Shown here in pieces: positions 4,515 to 36,463 of a DNA stretch of 64,000 bases. Both the position numbers and the translations under genes were made by a program. The stretch spans positions 2,971 to 66,970 of the forward strand of contig MGHM01000017.1 in assembly GCA_001793235.1 (NCBI GenBank). The letters are read 5' to 3'. Origin of the DNA: Candidatus Woesebacteria bacterium RIFCSPLOWO2_01_FULL_44_24b (GTDB lineage: Bacteria; Patescibacteriota; Microgenomatia; UBA8517). Positions within the stretch are counted from its first letter, which is position 1, and each line of letters starts with the position of its first letter. The notes beneath the pieces are model-generated. The model saw only the letters and a list, made by a program, of their open reading frames with translations, searched no databases and had not been told where the DNA came from.

Positions 4515-6443
4515 ATGCCAGAGAGATCAAAAGGAAAAGAACATAAAGAAATAATACACATACCGGTGGAAGAACTTGCAAAGGATAACCCTCAAATCGA
4601 AACTCCCAACCCTACTAGCTATGACGACATGGTAACTTCTTTTGCTCCTGGTCTATTTGATTCTATTAAGGTGGCAAGAGTTGACTTTGTTGAACAAGGG
4701 CAAATGGTATCGCGTTGGGGGATAGTAGATGGCAACTCCAAAACCAAATTCGCATATGACCACGGAAAAGAACATGGAATTACCGAGTTGGAATGCTACG
4801 ACGCTACACAAGAGTTATTGAGAAACCCAAGAATTGCGGACAGACCTGGTATTAAGAAAAATTCTCTTTCCATCAATGAATATCTAAGAGCAGTTATCCC
4901 ACCCACAAGAGAACATCGTGATATTGCAGCCAGAAGAATTGCTGGTCATATTACTCAAGGGTGGGATGGCTTGGTAGGCCAAGATATCTCTCGAGAATTC
5001 ACTGCTTCCGCGGCCTTAAGCTTACTAAATGACCCAAGAATCTCGACTTCCACAGAATTCTTACTGGCAAGATCAATTTCCAAACTGGACACGATTATAT
5101 CGAACGAAACAGAAGAAAAAAGGCAAATTATTCAGCAAGCTCTCGTTGAAATGAACTATATTCTTCAAGAAAGCCAACTACGACCTGGTGCTGTCTATAA
5201 GGAAATATTTATTTTGGTAGCATCAAAAGACCCGATGATTGGCGGAGCAAAGCAGGCATTACATCAAATGCATGGAGTTCTGAACCTGCCAGCTTTCCAG
5301 TCTAAGCTTGATGAATTAGGTCAAAGAGATATCGCTACTCAGAAGATTACTCAAGATAAACTTGCAAATTTGGCCCTTGAAACTATGAGTCGATTAGAAA
5401 AGGGAAACCAGGATCCGTCGTTGATTCCCACGATACTCCTCGATCAAAATTTAACTTTGGAAGAAACATCTGAAGTCATCTCGAGTGAGCAGGTTGCCAT
5501 AAGGTACGATGAAGTAAGACAAGCCAAACGCAGAAAAGATATAACACAGTCATACTCCGAACTAAAGGGCAGTGCCAGTATCTCCGATCTAGAATTAGAA
5601 TTAATATCAAGGTTTTCTGAGATAAACTTAAAGAGGGAGCAGTTTAAAGACGTTGCAAAGGTTATCCACAAAACGTCCACGACAGTCAATAATGTTACTA
5701 ATCTACTCCTACATATCGAATCTGAGCAAGATTCTTTAACTGAAAGAGGGGTAAAACAAACAACGCTGGATAAAGTTGGGGAGGTACTCTCGGATAATCT
5801 ACAAAATCTAGCTGCTTCTCAATCTCATCATCAACTTAGGCTACGAGAAAATGAGCTAAACACGGCCTATCAAGAATCACTAGAAGCAATACAAAGAGAT
5901 CGGGTTATAGTAAAAACCCAAGCGCAGATAGACTCCCTTATAAGACCAAGGTTAGCAAACTCATTCCGACCAGAAGTTACTGCTGCACTAGAAAAAAGAA
6001 CATTTTTGTATCTCATGGCGCACACCGGGGAGGAAATAAATAATATAGTTCCCCAGTTAATCGATCTGGATATAGACCTTTTAGTACGAGTGGTTGACGG
6101 CTCAGTAACACTTCAACACGCCAAAAACTTACAGAATGGAAGAAACTCGGAATGGCCACTGCCAACAGAACTTCCCCGTAAGGAAATTCCTGCAGAAATT
6201 GCAGAAATACAAAATCTCAAACTTTCAGAAGCTTTAAATAACCTTATTGACGTAATGCAATTTATCGAGTTAAACCCAGATTACTTAACCGTGGAAAATA
6301 AAGAAAAGGGCTGGCAAACAATTGTTGCTTTGGTAAAAATTGTCCACGGCCACCCAGATGCCAAGAGAATGATTGAAGATTATGATTCGTTATTAAAAAA
6401 GGTTATTAGATTACAAGAGCAACTTACCATAAAAAGGGACTAG
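4515..6443 (+). CDS. Large (642 aa) mostly alpha-helical hypothetical protein with ParB/Srx-like (DGQHR/DUF262-like) N-terminal region
   Basis: The N-terminus, IIHIPVEELAKDNPQIETPNP...QMVSRWGIVDGNSKTKFAY, resembles a ParB-fold 'I.V..L..NP.Q.R ... ivDGqhR..A' segment, with a DGNSK variant of DGQHR. The remainder is coiled-coil-like. It starts 10 nt after the previous gene. Confidence 0.45.
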   Translation: MPERSKGKEHKEIIHIPVEELAKDNPQIETPNPTSYDDMVTSFAPGLFDSIKVARVDFVEQGQMVSRWGIVDGNSKTKFAYDHGKEHGITELECYDATQELLRNPRIADRPGIKKNSLSINEYLRAVIPPTREHRDIAARRIAGHITQGWDGLVGQDISREFTASAALSLLNDPRISTSTEFLLARSISKLDTIISNETEEKRQIIQQALVEMNYILQESQLRPGAVYKEIFILVASKDPMIGGAKQALHQMHGVLNLPAFQSKLDELGQRDIATQKITQDKLANLALETMSRLEKGNQDPSLIPTILLDQNLTLEETSEVISSEQVAIRYDEVRQAKRRKDITQSYSELKGSASISDLELELISRFSEINLKREQFKDVAKVIHKTSTTVNNVTNLLLHIESEQDSLTERGVKQTTLDKVGEVLSDNLQNLAASQSHHQLRLRENELNTAYQESLEAIQRDRVIVKTQAQIDSLIRPRLANSFRPEVTAALEKRTFLYLMAHTGEEINNIVPQLIDLDIDLLVRVVDGSVTLQHAKNLQNGRNSEWPLPTELPRKEIPAEIAEIQNLKLSEALNNLIDVMQFIELNPDYLTVENKEKGWQTIVALVKIVHGHPDAKRMIEDYDSLLKKVIRLQEQLTIKRD

Positions 6444-6482
6444 ACTATTTACTTCGTCTTTTATTGGGGATAGAATATCTAT

Positions 6483-7646
6483 ATGGCAAATGCACCTCTT
6501 GCTGAGAAGCTAAGACCAAAGAAATTAAGTGAGTTTATCGGGCAAAGTAATTTGGTCGGAAAAGAAGGAATAATTAGAAAACTCCTTGCCCCAAACGTAG
6601 CCAGAGGCGAAGTGGGGTTCCCGTCACTCATTTTCTGGGGGCCTCCGGGAAGCGGCAAAACAACTTTAGCCCGCATTATTGCCGGTGAGCTCCAGAGACA
6701 ATATTTTGAAATATCTGCCGTCAATGCCTCGTCAAAAGAAATTCAAAAACTGGTCAAGGATAACTCCAACTTTATTCTCTTTATTGACGAGATTCATCGG
6801 TTCAACAAAGCCCAACAAGACAGGCTTTTGCCATATGTGGAAAGGGGAGATTTTATTTTAATTGGTGCAACTACTGAAAACCCATCTTTTGAAGTAATTG
6901 CGCCACTCCTTTCCCGCTCACGGGTGCTGGTTTTAAAACAGCATTCAGAAAAAGAGTTAGAGCTAATCTTAAACAAAGCTCTGAAATACTTAAAAATTAA
7001 AATAGATAAAAAGGCAGAGGAGTTTTTGGTTGAGAGCTCAAACGGCGACGCGCGAGTTTTAATAAATGTTTTAGAAATTGCAAATTCGCTAAAGACTAAA
7101 TATAAAATACTTGATACCACGATTATAGAAAACGCTCTTCAGAGACGTCAGCTTACGTTCGACAAACAAGGCGAGGAGTACTACAACGTCATTTCGGCGT
7201 TTATTAAAAGCATGAGAGCTTCCCAACCCGATGCAGTTCTTTATTATTTAGCGCGAATGGTGGAAGCCGGCCAGGACCCCTTGTATATTGCCAGACGCAT
7301 GGTTGTTTTCGCCAGTGAAGACATTGGCATGGCCCAGCCGACTGCACTGGTCGTTGCCAATGAAGTCTTTCGTGCATGCGAAACTATTGGCTATCCGGAA
7401 TGCGCAATAAATCTGGCTCACGGCGTGGTCTATTTGGCAACGGCCAAAAAGGACCGCTCGGCATATAATGCCTACATGGCGGCACTTTCAGATGTCCGCC
7501 AGCACGGCAATCTTCCGGTTCCCATGAATATCCGAAACCCCTCAACAAAACTCATGAAAGGTTTGGGCTATAGCAAAGGCTACGAAAAATATGATACTCA
7601 AAGTTATTTACCCGATAGACTTAAAGGTAAGAAGTATTATAATTGA
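6483..7646 (+). CDS. rarA: Replication-associated recombination protein A (AAA+ ATPase RarA/MgsA)
   Basis: [17 protein letters not shown]...[22 protein letters not shown]...[16 protein letters not shown]...[11 protein letters not shown]... and C-terminal MgsA_C-like [37 protein letters not shown]. Confidence 0.9.
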
Positions 7647-28218: not shown

Positions 28219-28773
28219 GTGAAAAAAATAATCTTTGGTACCACAAATGCGGGCAAACTTGCCGAGGCTCAAAGTGTACTTGGCATGAAAGTGGAAGGTG
28301 TGAGCCTCGACATTGACGAAGTGCAGTCTCCGGATACGGCTTACGTGGCTACAAAAAAAGCCCAAGATTATTGGAAAAAAATAAAAAAACCGCTTTTTGT
28401 CGAGGATTTGGGCTTAACTTTCAAGGCATTTAAAAATCTTCCCGGGGTTTATATTAGAGACTTCCTGGAAAACTTGGGCAATGAGGGCTTAATAAAAATA
28501 ATTCCAAAAGGCAAGTCCAGAGAAGCTACGGCCGTAACGGTACTTGCCTATTATGCTGGCCGCGGCGAGCCCAAGCTTTTTAAAGGTGAAGTAAAAGGCA
28601 CAATTGCCCAAAAGACCAAAGGCGACAAAGGCTTTGGCTGGGACCCGATTTTTATCCCGAAGGGAAGTAAAAAAACATTCGGCCAGATGGAAATGGAAGA
28701 AAAAAACAAGTATTCAATGAGAAGAAAAGCCCTGGAAAAACTTCACAAGTGGCTCAAAGAAAAGAAGATGTGA
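28219..28773 (+). CDS. rdgB: Non-canonical purine NTP pyrophosphatase (RdgB/HAM1/ITPase family)
   Basis: KIIFGTTNAGKLAEAQSVLG...FVEDLGL...GFGWDPIFIP...SMRRKALEKL; GTG start at 28219 (the ORF-track extension overlaps the convergent upstream gene); the TGA stop overlaps the tRNA 3' end. Confidence 0.8.
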   Translation: MKKIIFGTTNAGKLAEAQSVLGMKVEGVSLDIDEVQSPDTAYVATKKAQDYWKKIKKPLFVEDLGLTFKAFKNLPGVYIRDFLENLGNEGLIKIIPKGKSREATAVTVLAYYAGRGEPKLFKGEVKGTIAQKTKGDKGFGWDPIFIPKGSKKTFGQMEMEEKNKYSMRRKALEKLHKWLKEKKM

Positions 28774-28843
28774 CGCTATCGGGAGTCGAACCCGAGTTTG
28801 TGGGATGAGAACCCACTGTCCTGGACCACTAGACGATAGCGCC
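28771..28843 (-). tRNA. tRNA-Glu (anticodon CUC)
   Basis: Minus strand GGCGCTATCGTCTAGTGGTCCAGGACAGTGGGTTCTCATCCCACAAACTCGGGTTCGACTCCCGATAGCGTCA: 7-bp acceptor stem, D-arm GTCT/GGAC with the TCTAGTGGTCCAGGA loop typical of tRNA-Glu, anticodon loop TTCTCAT, T-arm TCGGG-TTCGACT-CCCGA, discriminator A; CCA not encoded. Confidence 0.85.
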
Positions 28844-28870: not shown

Positions 28871-28900
28871 TTGACAGCACTTTTTATAAGTTGCTATAGT
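28871..28900 (+). promoter_or_regulatory. Near-consensus sigma70-type promoter (TTGACA-18-TATAGT)
   Basis: ttgaca at 28871-28876 and tatagt at 28895-28900 with an 18-nt AT-rich spacer, upstream of the leader ORF and operon. Confidence 0.5.
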
Positions 28901-28938
28901 TATTTTTTAGGAGCCGAAAGTTTTAAAAGCTTCTAAAA

Positions 28939-29001
28939 ATGAACAACAACTCACCAAATATTGGCAAACGGCGTCAAGATAGATACCGTTTTAATTTTTA
29001 A
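28939..29001 (+). CDS. Putative leader peptide ORF (20 codons: MNNNSPNIGKRRQDRYRFNF) whose stop abuts an intrinsic terminator
   Basis: The ATG at 28939 is preceded by AGGAG (28911-28915, distant). The TAA stop at 28999-29001 overlaps the first stem nucleotides of the terminator. Rich in Asn (3) and Arg (4 of 8 residues). Confidence 0.3.
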   Translation: MNNNSPNIGKRRQDRYRFNF

Positions 29002-29025
29002 AAGAGCCTTGGGGCTCTTTTTTTT
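29001..29025 (+). terminator. Rho-independent terminator/attenuator hairpin immediately upstream of the operon start codon
   Basis: AAAGAGCC-ttgg-GGCTCTTT followed by a T-tract, about 10 nt before the ATG at 29036. Confidence 0.6.
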
Positions 29026-29035
29026 GCGCCTAAAA

Positions 29036-29851
29036 ATGAAAACGAAGCATATTAGAAAAGTACTCCTCTGCGAGCCTTCGCATTTTTCCGTAGATTATGT
29101 AATTAATCCCTGGATGAAGATTGGAAGTATCAACAAAACTAAGGCAACTTCCCAGTGGAAGAATCTTGCAAACACTTTAACAAAACTTGCTATAAAGATC
29201 GAAATTATAAAACCCGCCAAAGGGTTGCCCGACATGGTCTTTGCTGCTGACCAGGCATTGATTAAATATAAAAACTTGGTTTTAAGTAATTTTCACTATC
29301 CCCAAAGGCGAAGGGAAATTAAAAAATATCTACCTTGGTTTAAGAAACAAAATTTCAAAATCTACAAACTTCCCAAAAAATGTTTTTTTGAAGGAAGCGG
29401 AGAATGTGTGTGGTATGGGGACCTATTGTTTGTAGGAACCGGATTTAGAAATTCCACCGGTGTTTGCAAATTTTTATCGGTATACCTAAATGTAGAGACA
29501 AAATGCCTCGAACTTATTAATCCTAAGTTTTATCACCTTGACACCTGCCTATTTCCACTTAATGACACGACTGCATTTTATTATCCTCTAGCATTCTCGC
29601 AAAAAAGCCAAAGAGTTTTGAAAAAGTTAGTTAAAAATTTAATCCCTCTAGCAGATGACGAAGCAAATAATTTTGCAGCCAATAGTTTGGTAACCGATCA
29701 TCGTGTAATTATGCAAAAGGGAAACAAAAATTTCGCCGTCAAGCTGAAAGATTTGGGCTACAAAACAGTGGAGGTAGATGTCTCAGAATTTATGAAATCT
29801 GGTGGTGGGATTCATTGCTTAGTGCAAACTTTAGAGGAGGAATATGCCTGA
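29036..29851 (+). CDS. Amidinotransferase-superfamily enzyme (DDAH / arginine- or agmatine-deiminase-like fold) with C-terminal catalytic Cys
   Basis: C-terminal KSGGGIHCLVQTL is the GGG(I/V)(H/R)C catalytic-Cys motif of the amidinotransferase/ADI/DDAH superfamily; 271 aa is DDAH-sized. Start at the ATG at 29036 (the ORF-track TTG at 28961 runs through the terminator). Confidence 0.55.
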   Translation: MKTKHIRKVLLCEPSHFSVDYVINPWMKIGSINKTKATSQWKNLANTLTKLAIKIEIIKPAKGLPDMVFAADQALIKYKNLVLSNFHYPQRRREIKKYLPWFKKQNFKIYKLPKKCFFEGSGECVWYGDLLFVGTGFRNSTGVCKFLSVYLNVETKCLELINPKFYHLDTCLFPLNDTTAFYYPLAFSQKSQRVLKKLVKNLIPLADDEANNFAANSLVTDHRVIMQKGNKNFAVKLKDLGYKTVEVDVSEFMKSGGGIHCLVQTLEEEYA

Positions 29852-31217
29852 AAGAATTCTTATTCATAATGCCGATTATATTTATAACCTTGCGGGAGTT
29901 TCACCAAATTCGCCGCCGCAAGATATCCTAATTGAGGGAAATATTATTGCTGCAATTGGCCCAAAATTAGATGAAAAATTTGGGGATGTTAAAACCCACA
30001 TAGACGCAACTAATAAACTTGTCTTTCCGGGGTTTATCAACACCCATCACCATCTATTTCAAGCATTCATGAGGCATGTACCTCAAATGCAAAATCAAAG
30101 AATAGATCAATGGATTGCAGAAGCTACTTCCCGAGCTAAAAAGATGGACCCCGAAGCACACTACTGGGCTGCCCTTTCTAATATGGCAGAACTAGTACTC
30201 TCTGGTGCAACAACTACGACCGATATGCTTTATCTATATCCTAATCAATACGATCATCAAGAACTTTTTGAAGCAACTATTGAGGCTGCAAAAACCATTG
30301 GAGTCCGATTTCATCCCTACCGTGGATCAATGAGCAGAAGAGATGGGTTATTTGAAAAAGATGTGTTAGAAGAATCTGAAAAAATTATTGAACATACCAG
30401 AGACATTGTAGATAAATTCCACCAGAAAGCTGGAGATGCAATGGTTAAAGTTGGGATAGCACCATGCACTATCTTTACAAACTGTGCTTATGATTACGAA
30501 CAAGCTGCGGCACTTGCAATAAGATACGACATTAATCTGCAAACTCATTTGGGTGAATCAAAATTTGAAACCCGATATGTTCTTGAAAAATACGGCATGA
30601 CACCTTACCAGTTGATGGAATCACTGGGGTGGAAAGATAGTAGAGTTAGCCTTGCCCATTGTATTGAGATAAACGATGAAGATATTGACCGTTTAGCGCA
30701 AAACCACAATTCTGTTAGCCATTGCCCTACTTCAAATGCACGCTCGCCCATAGGGCAAACAGGAGTTGCTCCAATAGCCAAAATGCTTCAAAAAGGAGTG
30801 AATGTGTCAATTGGCGTTGACGGCAGTGCAGGAAACGATTCATCTGACATGCTTTTTGAAATGAGAGCTGCCAGAACTAACCAAGGAATTCCAGAAGAAT
30901 CAACATATCTTGATCCAGAGCAGATTTTTTATATGGCAACTGAAGGTGGCGCCAAAGCTCTTAGATGGGAAAGCAACATAGGACGTGTTGAGCAAGGATA
31001 CTGCGCTGATATAACTATTTTTGATATTCATGATTCCATTGGTCATATAGGTGCATGGGACAAAGCCGGGTCACTAATAAGCTGCAGCTCTAAACGGGCT
31101 GAAACAGTTATTATAAACGGAGAAATAATTGTTTCAGAAGGAAGACTTACGAAAATAGAAGAACGGCAACTGATAAAAAAAGCAACGACTAAATGGAAGG
31201 AGGCTTTTGGCAAATGA
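29844..31217 (+). CDS. Amidohydrolase, TRZ/ATZ (chlorohydrolase / nucleobase- or nucleoside-deaminase) family
   Basis: PGFINTHHHLFQAFMR (HxH metal site), later HLGES and D-rich C-terminal motifs typical of guanine/cytosine/MTA deaminase-type amidohydrolases; overlaps the previous gene by 8 nt. Confidence 0.75.
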   Translation: MPERILIHNADYIYNLAGVSPNSPPQDILIEGNIIAAIGPKLDEKFGDVKTHIDATNKLVFPGFINTHHHLFQAFMRHVPQMQNQRIDQWIAEATSRAKKMDPEAHYWAALSNMAELVLSGATTTTDMLYLYPNQYDHQELFEATIEAAKTIGVRFHPYRGSMSRRDGLFEKDVLEESEKIIEHTRDIVDKFHQKAGDAMVKVGIAPCTIFTNCAYDYEQAAALAIRYDINLQTHLGESKFETRYVLEKYGMTPYQLMESLGWKDSRVSLAHCIEINDEDIDRLAQNHNSVSHCPTSNARSPIGQTGVAPIAKMLQKGVNVSIGVDGSAGNDSSDMLFEMRAARTNQGIPEESTYLDPEQIFYMATEGGAKALRWESNIGRVEQGYCADITIFDIHDSIGHIGAWDKAGSLISCSSKRAETVIINGEIIVSEGRLTKIEERQLIKKATTKWKEAFGK

Positions 31218-32488
31218 TAAATGTAGACTTAGAAAAAACAATTCCAGAACCTTTGCGCTTTCCCGATGAAAGAGTAAAAGTAGCTGAGATAAGACAAGAT
31301 TACGGAACTTTTTTAAGTGTAGATGCATTAAAATGGGCACTTAACAAAGATTACTTAAGTAAAGATTCCCAAAAAATAACCGCTTCAGAGATTGCCCCAT
31401 CGCTAAGATGTCCTGAAGGGTGCAATAATTGTCCCGATTCTATCCTCGAAATTAAAAGGCGTATAGCTGTAGGTTTGATTCCAAAGGTGGAAGCCAGGGC
31501 TCGAACTGAGACTTTTAAATATATGATGGACGATTTCTATAATTTGGGTATTCGCCATTGGATGTTTGTAGGAGGAACTCTTGATCACTTACCAGAAATT
31601 GGTGAACTAATTAATCATGGATTGAGCCAAGAAGAAACAAAAGTTAGTTGGTTTAGCGATGGCATCCCTCAAACTAATCCCGATGGCAGTCCTTCAAATT
31701 TAATGCAAACTGCACTAGAGGATGGATGGATGAAAAAAGTTGCAAATCATGTTTCTTGGGATTATCCCTACGGGTATGCCAATATAATCCCTCATGGAAA
31801 TATTTTACCTCTCAAGCAAGGGAGAGGGCTCAAATTTGAAGACGATCCAGAGTACTCAAGAGTTTTCAAAACTCACTATGGTACCATCTTTGCTCTTAAT
31901 TTGATTAATGCTGATGCAAGAAGGGTTGTGCTTAATATCACGGTCTCTCCAGGAAATTTAAGGCTAATTCCCCAATTATATGCTCAAGCCGATCTTTTGC
32001 AGCAACATGCTATCGAAAATGGAAAGAAAACTGAGGTAGGTTTAACGTTCAGCCCGTCCATTTGGAGACCTCACCAAGCCAGAGGGGACGGAACCTTACA
32101 AAGCCCTGCTTCGGCAGGGCTTGAAATGAGAGATATGTCAGAAACGAACGAAATATTTTCAATGATATTACAAAATGAATACCAGCGAATAAGAAATGGT
32201 CATCCTCGTTTACTTTATAACTCTTCAGGATATACAAATTTAATGGCTGACCCGCAATACAGACAAATTACAGTTGACCAGGGAGTACCCTATCCTAATG
32301 GTCCAGAAATACTAAATATAACCCCTACAGCTGACGCTTGGCTTGATCCGATGTTTGCAGGTCCGGAATTGGAAGCGATAAATAGTACGTTTGGATACAG
32401 AGACCGGGTCTTCAAACCTGAAAATAATATATTTACACAATTCCAAGACCCTAACCTGCCTTGGTTTCCAAATATGGTAACAACATGA
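31214..32488 (+). CDS. Hypothetical protein with CxxxCxxC motif (possible non-canonical radical SAM or Fe-S enzyme)
   Basis: SLRCPEGCNNCPDS (C-x3-C-x2-C) at residues ~65-75, followed by MFVGGTLDHLPE (possible GGE-like SAM-binding motif); ATGA-coupled to the amidohydrolase. Confidence 0.35.
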   Translation: MINVDLEKTIPEPLRFPDERVKVAEIRQDYGTFLSVDALKWALNKDYLSKDSQKITASEIAPSLRCPEGCNNCPDSILEIKRRIAVGLIPKVEARARTETFKYMMDDFYNLGIRHWMFVGGTLDHLPEIGELINHGLSQEETKVSWFSDGIPQTNPDGSPSNLMQTALEDGWMKKVANHVSWDYPYGYANIIPHGNILPLKQGRGLKFEDDPEYSRVFKTHYGTIFALNLINADARRVVLNITVSPGNLRLIPQLYAQADLLQQHAIENGKKTEVGLTFSPSIWRPHQARGDGTLQSPASAGLEMRDMSETNEIFSMILQNEYQRIRNGHPRLLYNSSGYTNLMADPQYRQITVDQGVPYPNGPEILNITPTADAWLDPMFAGPELEAINSTFGYRDRVFKPENNIFTQFQDPNLPWFPNMVTT

Positions 32489-34613: not shown

Positions 34614-34750
34614 ATGTTTTATAGTATTTGAAGAACAACAAATTAGCAATTGACACGCTTCTCTTATAGGGTTAATTTAAAAGTAACAGTGTAATACCTC
34701 TTTGATCTTGGGAGGAAATATAAGAATAACAAGATTGATAATTAAAAGGT

Positions 34751-34779
34751 AGTCCCGCTGTTGGCGGGATTTTTATTTG
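34751..34779 (+). terminator. Hairpin plus T-tract (intrinsic-terminator-like) in the intergenic region
   Basis: agTCCCGCtgttGGCGGGAttttta; no plus-strand gene lies immediately upstream, and the function is unclear. Confidence 0.3.
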
Positions 34780-34989
34780 TTATGAGCGTTGAAGCACTAG
34801 TCGCAAACAAAGATATAATTGAGTATGCCATTGGCGCTCCTCCCCAGGCTATGAAGCTCATTCACTCTTCTGTTTATGGGCCGCTTCATCAATCGGAAAA
34901 CGGATCAAACGACACTTCAGGTAAAAGTATTATCCATAGCGTAAGGCACGAGCCACCATTCCCCATAGATGTAAATATTCGGAAATAAG

Positions 34990-35604
34990 ATGGCAATACC
35001 AGACAGGCTTCAGACAAGTGAAATAAGGCAAATCTCACTGGAGCTGACTGACCCACAACTTGTTATTGATCTGAGCTCACTCGGTTACGAAGTACATATC
35101 GACACAGTGCTAAACAAACCTTTCTTTAAAGGAATATCCCAGCAAAGAGAGGTCCCCCTCCCTGCCTTTCATACGGATTCCTACATCTTAAATTCACTTG
35201 TCAATATGGGGTATAAATTCAGCGATCAGCATATTTATCCTGCGAACGCTGTCAAATACGCTCGTGGAGGCCAATGGGGTGCTATTAATGGAGTAATAAA
35301 CTTCTACCCTGATCTTGGCAAGCTTTTGACAACCAATTTAAACCCGGATTGTTTAGAGATAATTAAAACGGGAGTCAATAACGGCAATAGCCTTGAAGAA
35401 GAAGTTGAAAAAGTCCTGGGTAAAGCTCCGCAAAAGAAACTGCTCAAAATCCCGGTTGCAGTTCTCCCCACTACTTCCATTGACATAGAAGCCTGGGCCA
35501 TTTATGTCCCTGACTCAAACGTAGCAATAGCTCAGAACCTAAAGCAAATAGTTTGTGACCGAACAGAGAGAGCTTCCCACTCTGCAATCTCACTGCAAGA
35601 TTAA
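34990..35604 (+). CDS. Hypothetical protein (204 aa)
   Basis: ORF with coding-like composition; no motif recognised. Confidence 0.4.
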   Translation: MAIPDRLQTSEIRQISLELTDPQLVIDLSSLGYEVHIDTVLNKPFFKGISQQREVPLPAFHTDSYILNSLVNMGYKFSDQHIYPANAVKYARGGQWGAINGVINFYPDLGKLLTTNLNPDCLEIIKTGVNNGNSLEEEVEKVLGKAPQKKLLKIPVAVLPTTSIDIEAWAIYVPDSNVAIAQNLKQIVCDRTERASHSAISLQD

Positions 35605-35611
35605 CTAAACC

Positions 35612-36463
35612 ATGATCTTTCGTGAAAGAGAAAGAGCCAACAACCAAGAATGGTACACGCTAGACGGCTGGCATCTTAGCTTCTCCGGTGGTAGCACTAA
35701 GAATTCAATAGTAGTCAAAACAAGAACGGGCAACATTTACCAAGAGCCTGAGTCTACTATACATTTATCGGCCGCCCTAGGGGAACGCTTGGAAGTCTTT
35801 ATTAAAAGCGGGGGTTATATCGACAGAGTCATGGCAAACACTGATCCAGCAAGCTTAAACTACACAATTACTCAACTAAATCGCGCAATCTCAAGCACAG
35901 GCATTGATCATGCAACAATATGGTCAATTGGTGCAATGGGCTATTGCGGTTATTGTGCAAACGGCGAGATCTACCGAAGAAGTAGATACTTAAAGTCATT
36001 AATAGATGGAAATAACGATTTGGGTAAGATCATGAGACAGTCTCAAACCTTAAAAAATAAACAGTTCTACGACCGGGATGGCAGGATTGTAAGCTCGGCT
36101 GTGTGTAGCCTGACAGAGGCTTTTGAAATTTTAGACTACCCTACACCACCCATGCAAGTAAGCCCAAATTCCTCCTATTTGCTAATTATTCGAAGGGCGG
36201 ACTTAATTGAAGGTTATGAGTACACCAATACCATAGTTTCTGAAACAAACCAGTTTTGTTATGACTATTTTGATTTTACTTCAAGTTCTATAAACACTCC
36301 TACCAAAAATATGCCACAATTCCGCAAATATAAACCTTCCAAAGGCGATCAATTCCTTAGGGCTGTACAAATTCTAAAAGATGCAGGGTATCAAATAGAA
36401 GATGGAACGGGGTGCATTAGGGACAACAATACTCTGGTTTTTCCAGTCCCCAAACTACGCTGA
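35612..36463 (+). CDS. Hypothetical protein (283 aa)
   Basis: ORF 8 nt after the previous gene; no motif recognised. Confidence 0.4.
   Translation: MIFRERERANNQEWYTLDGWHLSFSGGSTKNSIVVKTRTGNIYQEPESTIHLSAALGERLEVFIKSGGYIDRVMANTDPASLNYTITQLNRAISSTGIDHATIWSIGAMGYCGYCANGEIYRRSRYLKSLIDGNNDLGKIMRQSQTLKNKQFYDRDGRIVSSAVCSLTEAFEILDYPTPPMQVSPNSSYLLIIRRADLIEGYEYTNTIVSETNQFCYDYFDFTSSSINTPTKNMPQFRKYKPSKGDQFLRAVQILKDAGYQIEDGTGCIRDNNTLVFPVPKLR

Follow-up and report, generated by a model that had tools for sequence, protein, structure and literature searches.

How is transcription of an operon controlled when its first gene starts only ten nucleotides (nt) behind an intrinsic terminator? The question is raised by a 64-kb stretch of DNA from Candidatus Woesebacteria (contig MGHM01000017.1), hereafter called the window, in which a promoter, a 20-codon open reading frame (ORF) and a terminator stand in close succession ahead of a gene for a DDAH/arginine-dihydrolase-like enzyme (Table 1). 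Its gene content places the organism among Patescibacteria of the Microgenomates type. Patescibacteria, also referred to as the Candidate Phyla Radiation (CPR), are uncultured and have reduced genomes with few recognisable regulators; to our knowledge, almost nothing is known about their gene regulation. An earlier note on this DNA had listed the promoter, an AGGAG motif, the ORF, the terminator and the gene ATG, each of which was found in its place, and had proposed a ribosome-mediated attenuator. The ORF/terminator architecture conserved across orthologues indicates that this proposal was right in kind. Judging from sequence comparison, we consider it moderately probable that transcription is attenuated here in a ribosome-dependent manner, by coupling as in pyrBI and pyrE.

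Association of a short ORF with the terminator across loci

For comparison, 170 loci encoding relatives of the first gene were collected, 160 of which have enough upstream sequence. A hairpin with T-tract lies at most 110 nt upstream of the gene in 43 of the 160, and in most of the remaining loci it is merely the next gene after an argG with a fused MGS-like domain. The leader-bearing loci (given as L numbers, with WIN for the window) fall into about ten leader types that are unrelated in sequence and follow one plan: TTGACA-N17-(TAnAGT/TATCCT), a 5′ element UUUUUAG(G/A)AG, a short ORF, a terminator and, finally, U8-G(C)C-A-rich-ATG. The TTGACA of the −35 region is kept in nearly all of them; both the position of the −10 box relative to the 5′ element and the G(C)C after the U-tract are constant across clades.

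Dereplication at 80% left 28 leaders, in which we scored ORFs that begin with ATG, comprise at least 8 codons and end between −8 and +3 of the GC core of the hairpin. Such abutting ORFs are present in 13 of the 28 leaders compared to 1.7 ± 1.3 in shuffled sequences, and none of 1000 shuffles reached 13. Their stop codons lie 1–5 nt ahead of the GC core. Eight more leaders carry ORFs that traverse the hairpin (4.3 ± 1.9 in shuffles) and usually end on the gene start as ATGA or TAAATG (L004, L082, L161, L164 and the L064 type). Abutting and traversing ORFs together account for 21 leaders, a number that was likewise reached by 0 of 1000 shuffles, and in about 26 of the 28 leaders an ORF abuts, traverses or is fused through the hairpin. 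The association of ORF and hairpin across the 28 leaders is far beyond chance. The abutting leaders are WIN, L001, L160, L104, L006, L033, L055, L078, L045, L007, L041, L042 and L047; the same geometry is found in L065, which was lost at dereplication, L149 and L163b. Taken by itself, the window gives a marginal result: 1.4% of its dinucleotide shuffles contain an ATG ORF that has 20 or more codons and abuts the hairpin. It is thus the architecture of leader ORF and terminator that is kept before the orthologues, and it is kept across many loci.

The leader in the window

The leader promoter matches 11 of 12 consensus positions, with an 18-nt spacer and an extended −10 TG, and its position suggests a transcription start at about 28906–28908. 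At the other end of the leader, the TAA of the ORF (28999–29001) overlaps the foot of the terminator stem, leaving 2 nt between the end of the stop codon and the GAGCC core. The hairpin has an energy of −11.4 kcal/mol (RNAfold and our own scan) and a T-tract of eight T at 29018–29025. A consensus terminator scan did not list the site as stem extension absorbs four of the eight T; it was recovered by our own scan and by RNAfold. The motif GAGCC-N4-GGCTC has a single occurrence in the 64-kb window.

The gene ATG at 29036 follows 10 nt past the T-tract, and inspection of the intervening spacer revealed neither a Shine–Dalgarno (SD) sequence nor a −10 box. A leaderless promoter between the T-tract and this ATG was considered and rejected, as none is present. 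Because the upstream tRNA-Glu gene is on the opposite strand and no −10 box separates T-tract and ATG, there is no other transcription route to the operon, and the module of leader ORF and terminator must gate its transcription.

Two further hairpins precede the terminator. P1, whose 3′ arm stops 2 nt short of the leader ATG according to folding, contains the AGGAG (28909–28913) in its 5′ arm. This motif had been taken for the ribosome-binding site of the leader ORF; at a spacing of 25 nt to the ATG it cannot be its SD sequence. The equivalent 5′ element is a real SD sequence in L169, where AGGAG stands six nt ahead of an 11-codon leader ORF (N6-AUG), and in L160 (N11-AUG), and it contains the GUG start in the GTG clade described below. 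Among WIN, L001 and L160, P1 shows one compensatory pair (U-A to C-G) and 93% of cells are paired. P2 lies within the leader ORF and is trailed by a U-rich run (28989–28999) that includes UUUUAAUUUUU; the Arg-rich stretch K-R-R..R..F-F of the peptide is the in-frame reading of P2 and its U-run. In the same three sequences P2 shows one compensatory pair (U-A to A-U), with pairing in 96% of cells in the given register vs. 26–61% in slid registers. In L167 the homologous hairpin is followed by a complete U8 tract, and L161 has no terminator other than this hairpin. A MAFFT/RNAalifold alignment of five P2 regions misaligned L167 and L161, in which the hairpins are evident from the individual sequences. 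The most plausible role for P2 with its U-run is that of a site inside the ORF where RNA polymerase may pause, or of a weak first terminator.

Variation between clades

The window clade comprises WIN, L001, L160, L167 and L161, with enzymes that are 67–84% identical. The leader ORF family and its frame are kept in all five members, the start codon being shifted by four codons (for the peptides, see Table 1). In L168 (enzyme 63% identical), the gene follows immediately on the shared promoter and 5′ element, and both ORF and terminator are missing; this joint absence suggests that ORF and terminator behave as a unit. In L164, hairpin and ORF are out of register compared with the other loci, and the same ORF runs up to the gene start, where it stops in ATGA. 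The shifted register argues that it is the RNA hairpin that is conserved, not the encoded peptide.

A second clade is formed by L002, L162, L163, L165 and L166 (enzymes 59–70% identical), in which the short ORF is fused to the enzyme. Here no start codon is found from the T-tract to the conserved N-terminus K-T-K-Y-I-K, and the sole in-frame start is a GTG 11 nt past the −10 box. The frame is open for 27–28 codons through the terminator, and the other two frames hold 1–5 stops. With only the GTG start available and the other frames closed, translation through the terminator is obligatory in this clade. The public gene calls for these proteins give 299 amino acids (aa) and appear genuine. This in-frame variant with a terminator inside the gene is unusual.

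Within clades, the variable sites of the leader ORFs are distributed over the three codon positions as 21/32/32, i.e., without third-position excess, and 13 variable codons differ only synonymously vs. 44 with amino-acid changes. A coding constraint on the leader peptides was not detectable in these data. Between clades the peptides are wholly different: Arg-rich in the window clade, Lys-rich in the GTG clade, and Thr/Ile-rich in others (e.g. MKTTKFITIIIS, MKKTTRFFTIIIV, MKKTNRITNFILIS and MAKKFKVKTIIIT). The conserved features are the presence of the ORF and its end point, not the peptide. As the end of the ORF is conserved and the peptide is not, the position of the ribosome is favoured over codon sensing or arrest peptides as the decisive variable.

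Proposed mechanism

We propose that transcripts from the leader promoter would stop at the U8 tract (29025) unless the terminator hairpin cannot fold. A ribosome in step with the polymerase would cover the 5′ arm (29000–29008, and up to 29012) at the time when the 3′ arm emerges, leading to read-through. Conversely, an untranslated leader or a lagging ribosome would let the hairpin form and transcription terminate at 29025. P2 and its U-rich tail probably pause the polymerase and let the ribosome catch up, P2 being the first terminator in relatives. From these elements we infer the direction of control, translation promoting read-through. In E. coli, termination at tR2 fell from ~90% to <10% in a translation-dependent manner when the distance between a stop codon and the terminator was cut from 28 to 5 bp (PMC4824070), and prevention of termination at pyrBI requires tight coupling across pyrL (PMC5021804). 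At pyrBI, it is at pause sites that the ribosome can draw level with the polymerase (PMC4824070, PMC5021804).

Three signals are conceivable. One is the overall rate of translation or elongation. Another is the supply of Arg-tRNA, read via the four Arg codons just before the stop; such a signal would switch on an arginine-consuming enzyme only when arginine is plentiful, the opposite of the logic in the earlier note. The third is a UTP-dependent polymerase speed as in pyrBI.

Several observations weigh against the coupling mechanism. The 28 leaders are not phylogenetically independent and represent about 10 sequence-unrelated types. Moreover, a terminator in the first 100 nt of an E. coli coding region is usually functional, since the ribosome still trails the polymerase at that point (PMC4824070); coupling would therefore need a pause here, for which P2 is the putative site. 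The near-invariant stem found across unrelated leaders is left unexplained by coupling. A weak CUCUU/AAGAG antiterminator pairing is present in the GTG clade only, in view of which RNA rearrangements may contribute. The U fraction upstream of the leader hairpins is 0.35 vs. 0.31 for ordinary terminators (p = 0.025, calculated from non-independent sequences) and U-runs of at least four are found upstream of 43% of leader hairpins vs. 31% at ordinary terminators, a weak U-richness that gives no real support for UTP sensing. Finally, the leader ATG has no SD sequence and its upstream flank is paired in P1. The missing SD sequence is not disqualifying because the genome is SD-poor and leaderless starts are frequent. 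An SD-like motif precedes only 17 of 60 starts in the window, and a strong −10 box (TAnnnT) ends 5–9 nt before 14 of 59 gene ATGs of long ORFs compared to 3.1% of all ATG triplets, an enrichment that indicates that leaderless mRNAs are common in this genome. The sequence CUAAAAAUGAA stands at both the leader ATG and the gene ATG, and the lack of an SD sequence at either is not unusual here.

Occurrence of the module at other genes

The GAGCC-N3-6-GGCTC stem was searched for in 837 kb of fetched loci, a sample biased to the neighbourhood of one gene. It occurs 37 times, 32 of them before a DDAH-like gene. Four of the other five stand in a module of promoter, short ORF, hairpin and ATG: in L029 before an argG-MGS gene, in L149 and L091 before a DHO_dh-family gene with a pyrF-like gene behind it, and in L163 before an unknown gene of 329 aa; the fifth (L115) lacks a T-tract. 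Modules of a related kind, whose stems differ slightly, are found before an AsnRS/AsnA-like gene (L053) and before argG (L005, L081 and L084). The picture is that of a putative shared control device on arginine, aspartate and pyrimidine genes.

On this basis we tentatively suggest, with low confidence, a family of coupled attenuators in Patescibacteria that share the AAGAGCC/GGCUCUU terminator on mostly leaderless or near-leaderless RNAs and coordinate arginine/citrulline and pyrimidine genes (DDAH-like, argG-MGS, DHO_dh-like with pyrF, AsnRS/AsnA-like). The proposed family would include an undescribed form with the terminator in the coding sequence, and its stem may also bind a trans-acting factor.

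The leader peptide before argG in L005 reads MSNNNKTTIREQINQNKS and is followed by a stop codon. An arrangement of promoter, hairpin, U7–8 and ATG that dispenses with the ORF was observed before pyrB (L026:3790–3885 and L044:3670–3756), which encodes an aspartate carbamoyltransferase above the TIGR00670 cut-off, and before a PRK06886 cytosine-deaminase-like amidohydrolase gene (L053, minus strand, reverse-complement 1040–1111). The hairpins of these ORF-less arrangements are UCCAGAG-CGAG-ACUCUGGA or CCAGAA...UUCUGG, so that the terminator lies at the very 5′ end of the transcript.

Alternative explanations

The earlier note had envisaged sensing of Arg or Asn codons. In a trp/his-type attenuator of this kind, a ribosome stalled at these codons would allow an antiterminator to form, and starvation would induce the operon. 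The composition of the leader peptide (four Arg within 8 codons, five Asn among 20), the C-terminal (K/Q)RR..R..(F/L).(F/Y) kept in L001, L160, L167 and L161, and the place of the regulated gene in arginine metabolism speak for it. However, in a folding comparison of WIN, L001 and L160, neither arm of the terminator had a conserved alternative partner, and the stop codon is adjacent to the terminator itself, not to a segment 2. The NNN run is confined to WIN and L001 (it is absent from L160, L167 and L161), the Arg codons form the arms of P2, a hairpin with covariation at the RNA level, and leaders of the same gene are Ile- or Lys-rich in other clades. Moreover, it would make little sense for starvation to induce an enzyme that consumes arginine. 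Neither sensing of Arg or Asn codons nor a trp-type antiterminator is supported by these data, and a classical attenuator of this kind is quite unlikely. A pairing of the 5′ end with a terminator arm in L033 was dropped as a candidate antiterminator, the pairing bases being upstream of the inferred start site. Much of the same evidence bears on a nascent-peptide arrest sensor of the TnaC/SpeFL type, in which the peptide and a metabolite (arginine or ornithine, for example) would jointly stall the ribosome at the stop codon and block the terminator. The stop codon is indeed located at the terminator foot, RR..R..F.F and the following stop are conserved in the window clade, and induction by substrate would suit a catabolic enzyme; there is also what we take to be a loose resemblance of the window peptide to SpeFL (MENNSR...HIRR...FHFFNAR). 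Still, the conserved residues are accounted for by P2 and its U-run, the variable codons show no synonymous excess, peptides of other clades are unrelated, and known examples act on Rho rather than on intrinsic terminators, which makes an arrest sensor very improbable. A start of the enzyme at TTG 28961, which would leave no separate leader and place the hairpin inside the coding sequence, has a similarly slight chance of being correct. The frame is open from 28943 into the gene, and the GTG clade demonstrates that such fusions exist, but the TTG is not conserved in L001 or L160, ATG 29036 lines up with the ATG starts of L001, L160, L164 and L167, and the mini-ORF conserved in the window clade is the one in frame 0. 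Public gene calls for the enzyme disagree at the N-terminus (245, 271, 296 and 299 aa; P0001, P0002, P0005, P0008, P0016), a disagreement explained by the module, and the P0001 call (296 aa, from TTG 28961 through the terminator) is probably wrong for this genome.

A factor-dependent attenuator or operator, with a protein or ligand reading the AAGAGCC-N4-GGCUCUU hairpin or the DNA palindrome and the short ORFs being secondary, is unlikely as a whole. What speaks for it is the constant stem with its variable loops and leaders: across about 9 unrelated leader types the stem is nearly invariant and the loops are free. The distribution over the 37 sites described above fits a recognition element, both at the 32 sites before DDAH-like genes and at the four other module sites, as does the related hairpin (GGCTTTT 3′ arm) before the AsnRS/AsnA-like gene in L053. 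The GAGCC-type stem is not the generic terminator of these genomes, and the ORF-less arrangement before pyrB in L026 and L044, with its U8 tract, would also suit a factor. Conversely, the same architecture is built on quite different stems in L007, L041, L047, L104, L161 and L167, some leaders measure only ~50 nt from start site to hairpin and have no room for an aptamer, and the ORF–hairpin association is statistically strong. Rfam 15, whose models include the PyrR site and the T-box, gave no match at the gathering score in the window or in 20 loci, and a permissive search returned nothing relevant at E ≤ 10 for the window leader (Phe_leader, E = 10) or at E ≤ 1 for 5 loci. A PyrR-binding site, considered for the UCCAGAG in L002 and L026, was not detected with Rfam, and the phosphoribosyltransferases of the operon do not score as PyrR. 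A decidedly improbable alternative is that promoter, ORF and terminator constitute an independent tiny gene for a small peptide or an RNA of ~120 nt, the operon being transcribed by constitutive, unregulated leak-through. With a promoter so close to consensus and so strong a terminator, a short RNA would be made in abundance, and released attenuator RNAs and leader peptides are reported to act in trans in other bacteria (PMC6614838, PMC7298713). Against a tiny gene stand the unconserved peptide sequences and a module that is always tied to a downstream gene start within 0–40 nt; several loci have an ORF that extends into the gene start or is continuous with the gene, and L168 lacks the whole module. 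The coupling attenuator remains our preferred reading.

Operon genes and genomic context

The coordinates of the features are compiled in Table 1. Overlapping stops and starts suggest that the genes between 29036 and 33159 are presumably co-transcribed. The first of them matches Pfam PF19420 (E 7e-16), and in NCBIfam the Mtb-type dimethylargininase (242 bits) and arginine dihydrolase (232 bits) models, both under their cut-offs. Orthologues of this gene are operonic with argG in many genomes, which bears out the link to arginine metabolism drawn in the earlier note. A pyrimidine de novo operon was rejected for the window at the second gene, which is 8-oxoguanine-deaminase-like rather than a dihydroorotase; a pyrimidine connection survives only via neighbours and other loci. 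For the 431-aa ORF no Pfam or NCBIfam match was obtained apart from a lone spurious hit (E 0.002).

Left of the leader promoter, a plus-strand Ham1/ITPase gene has its stop at 28773, where it is overlapped by the 3′ end of the tRNA-Glu gene. The extended −10 of the tRNA promoter (TGgTATAAT, 28860–28852, minus strand) is back to back with the leader promoter. The same order of minus-strand tRNA, promoter and leader is found in L160, L161, L162, L165, L166 and L167.

Table 1 Positions of the features discussed in the text (window coordinates unless a locus is given)
Feature	Position	Strand	Details
−35 hexamer	28871–28876	+	TTGACA; consensus scan; identical in L001
Extended −10	28892–28900	+	TGcTATAGT; TG at 28892–28893, TATAGT at 28895–28900
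P1, 5′-terminal hairpin	28907–28936	+	5′ arm UUAGGAGC (28907–28914, holds AGGAG), 3′ arm GCUUCUAA (28929–28936)
Leader ORF	28939–29001	+	MNNNSPNIGKRRQDRYRFNF, 20 codons and TAA; ATG start; ORF listing
P2, hairpin within leader ORF	28966–28991	+	AAACGG-C-GUC / GAU-A-CCGUUU; folding
Intrinsic terminator	29000–29025	+	AAAAGAGCC (29000–29008)-TTGG-GGCTCTTTT (29013–29021); RNA 3′ arm GGCUCUUUU
Spacer	29026–29035	+	GCGCCUAAAA; between U-tract and gene ATG
First regulated gene, DDAH/arginine-dihydrolase-like	29036–29851	+	271 aa; guanidino-group-modifying superfamily
8-Oxoguanine-deaminase-like amidohydrolase gene	29844–31217	+	Pfam/NCBIfam search
Gene for protein of unknown function	31193–32488	+	431 aa; mid-operon ORF
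pyrE-like phosphoribosyltransferase gene	32461/32485–33159	+	Pfam/NCBIfam search
tRNA-Glu(CUC)	28770–28843	−	3′ end overlaps Ham1/ITPase stop (28773)
Leader peptides of the window clade			WIN MNNNSPNIGKRRQDRYRFNF; L001 MNNNSPNTSQRRRNRHRFIY; L160 MRLEIDNKLSNLMKRRPVRHRLFF; L167 MHLDLNKTINRKRRNLWRFF; L161 MHLEPPDNLPDLATKRPDRRFFLPKR; each followed by a stop codon
Module before argG-MGS	L029:400–2154; L005:120–1893; L081:1190–2933; L084:1335–2981
Module before DHO_dh-family gene	L149:1590–2747; L091:4950–6105
Module before AsnRS/AsnA-like gene	L053, reverse-complement 5603–6780	−

Several side observations were made in the course of the comparison. A second attenuator-like module is found at 34651–34790 (plus strand) of the window, with TTGACA at 34651–34656, a possible −10 TAATTT, and a hairpin AGTCCCG-ctgttgg-CGGGATT (34751–34771) followed by a T-run and an ATG at 34783. 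The TAG (34750–34752) of a TTG-started ORF of 14–16 codons is located at the foot of this hairpin, and the ATG leads into unknown genes (34990–36463). In two Shapirobacteria-type loci (L082:19–4458 and L004:698–6056, the latter the same as L170), leader and DDAH-like gene lie between 16S rRNA/tRNA and tRNA/23S rRNA, a placement that puts a protein gene with a strong intrinsic terminator inside an rRNA operon spacer. L036, L014, L152 and L029 encode, upstream of the DDAH-like gene, an argininosuccinate synthase with a C-terminal MGS-like domain of ~130 aa (for L029: Pfam PF00764, PF20979 and PF02142). The position of argG-MGS directly before the DDAH-like gene in many Saccharibacteria-type loci suggests that the two may form a functional arginine/citrulline pair. 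It should be noted that L081, L087, L089, L091 and others show a CPR-type neighbourhood under the titles 'uncultured Gammaproteobacteria' or 'Pseudomonadales', and these labels look doubtful.

Significance

If the proposed mechanism is true, the module is a protein-free switch with the ribosome as antiterminator, which would tie enzymes of arginine and nucleotide salvage economically to translational or nucleotide status. In the form with the terminator in the coding sequence, only transcripts translated from their first nucleotides would be completed, and the fused variants offer a natural test case for the tolerance of an intrinsic terminator inside a coding sequence. The architecture also provides a search pattern for co-regulated genes in CPR genomes: the stop of a short ORF is followed after at most 6 nt by a hairpin and 7 or more U, and an ATG comes no more than 40 nt later.

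Comparison with known systems

The principle of attenuation is known, whereas the form and the lineage described here are unfamiliar. The leaders trpL, hisL, thrL, ilvL, pheL and leuL share with the window a promoter, a short leader ORF, an intrinsic terminator and amino-acid-biased peptides. Unlike these, the window clade has no conserved 2:3 antiterminator and a stop codon right at the terminator; moreover, the codon bias is not kept among orthologous leaders, and no Rfam leader was matched. In TnaC and SpeFL, the position of the ribosome at the end of the leader ORF controls downstream transcription of catabolic, amino-acid-related targets; these systems employ conserved ligand-sensing peptides and Rho, whereas the window module has unconstrained peptides and an intrinsic terminator. 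A stop codon within ~5 nt of a terminator causes translation-dependent suppression of termination in the work of Li et al. 2016 (PMC4824070), although what is described there is a general biophysical effect on lambda tR2 in E. coli and not a dedicated element.

The closest counterparts are pyrE (rph-pyrE) and pyrBI (pyrL) of E. coli. The window module differs from them in its Patescibacteria lineage, in a leader ORF of 12–28 codons that often lies on a leaderless or near-leaderless RNA and is fused in frame to the enzyme in some variants, in a first regulated gene for an arginine-type guanidino hydrolase, and in a U-richness barely above background. Pyrimidine genes are nevertheless found among its neighbours and co-regulated genes, namely pyrB, a DHO_dh-like gene accompanied by pyrF, and the gene for a pyrE-like phosphoribosyltransferase. 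As in the window, the intrinsic terminator stands immediately before the regulated gene in both systems; the stop codon at the terminator foot reproduces the geometry of pyrE and the traversing ORFs of the relatives that of pyrBI. In pyrE and pyrBI, as would be the case for the mechanism proposed here, a close ribosome blocks the hairpin, no RNA antiterminator is involved, and the peptide is irrelevant.

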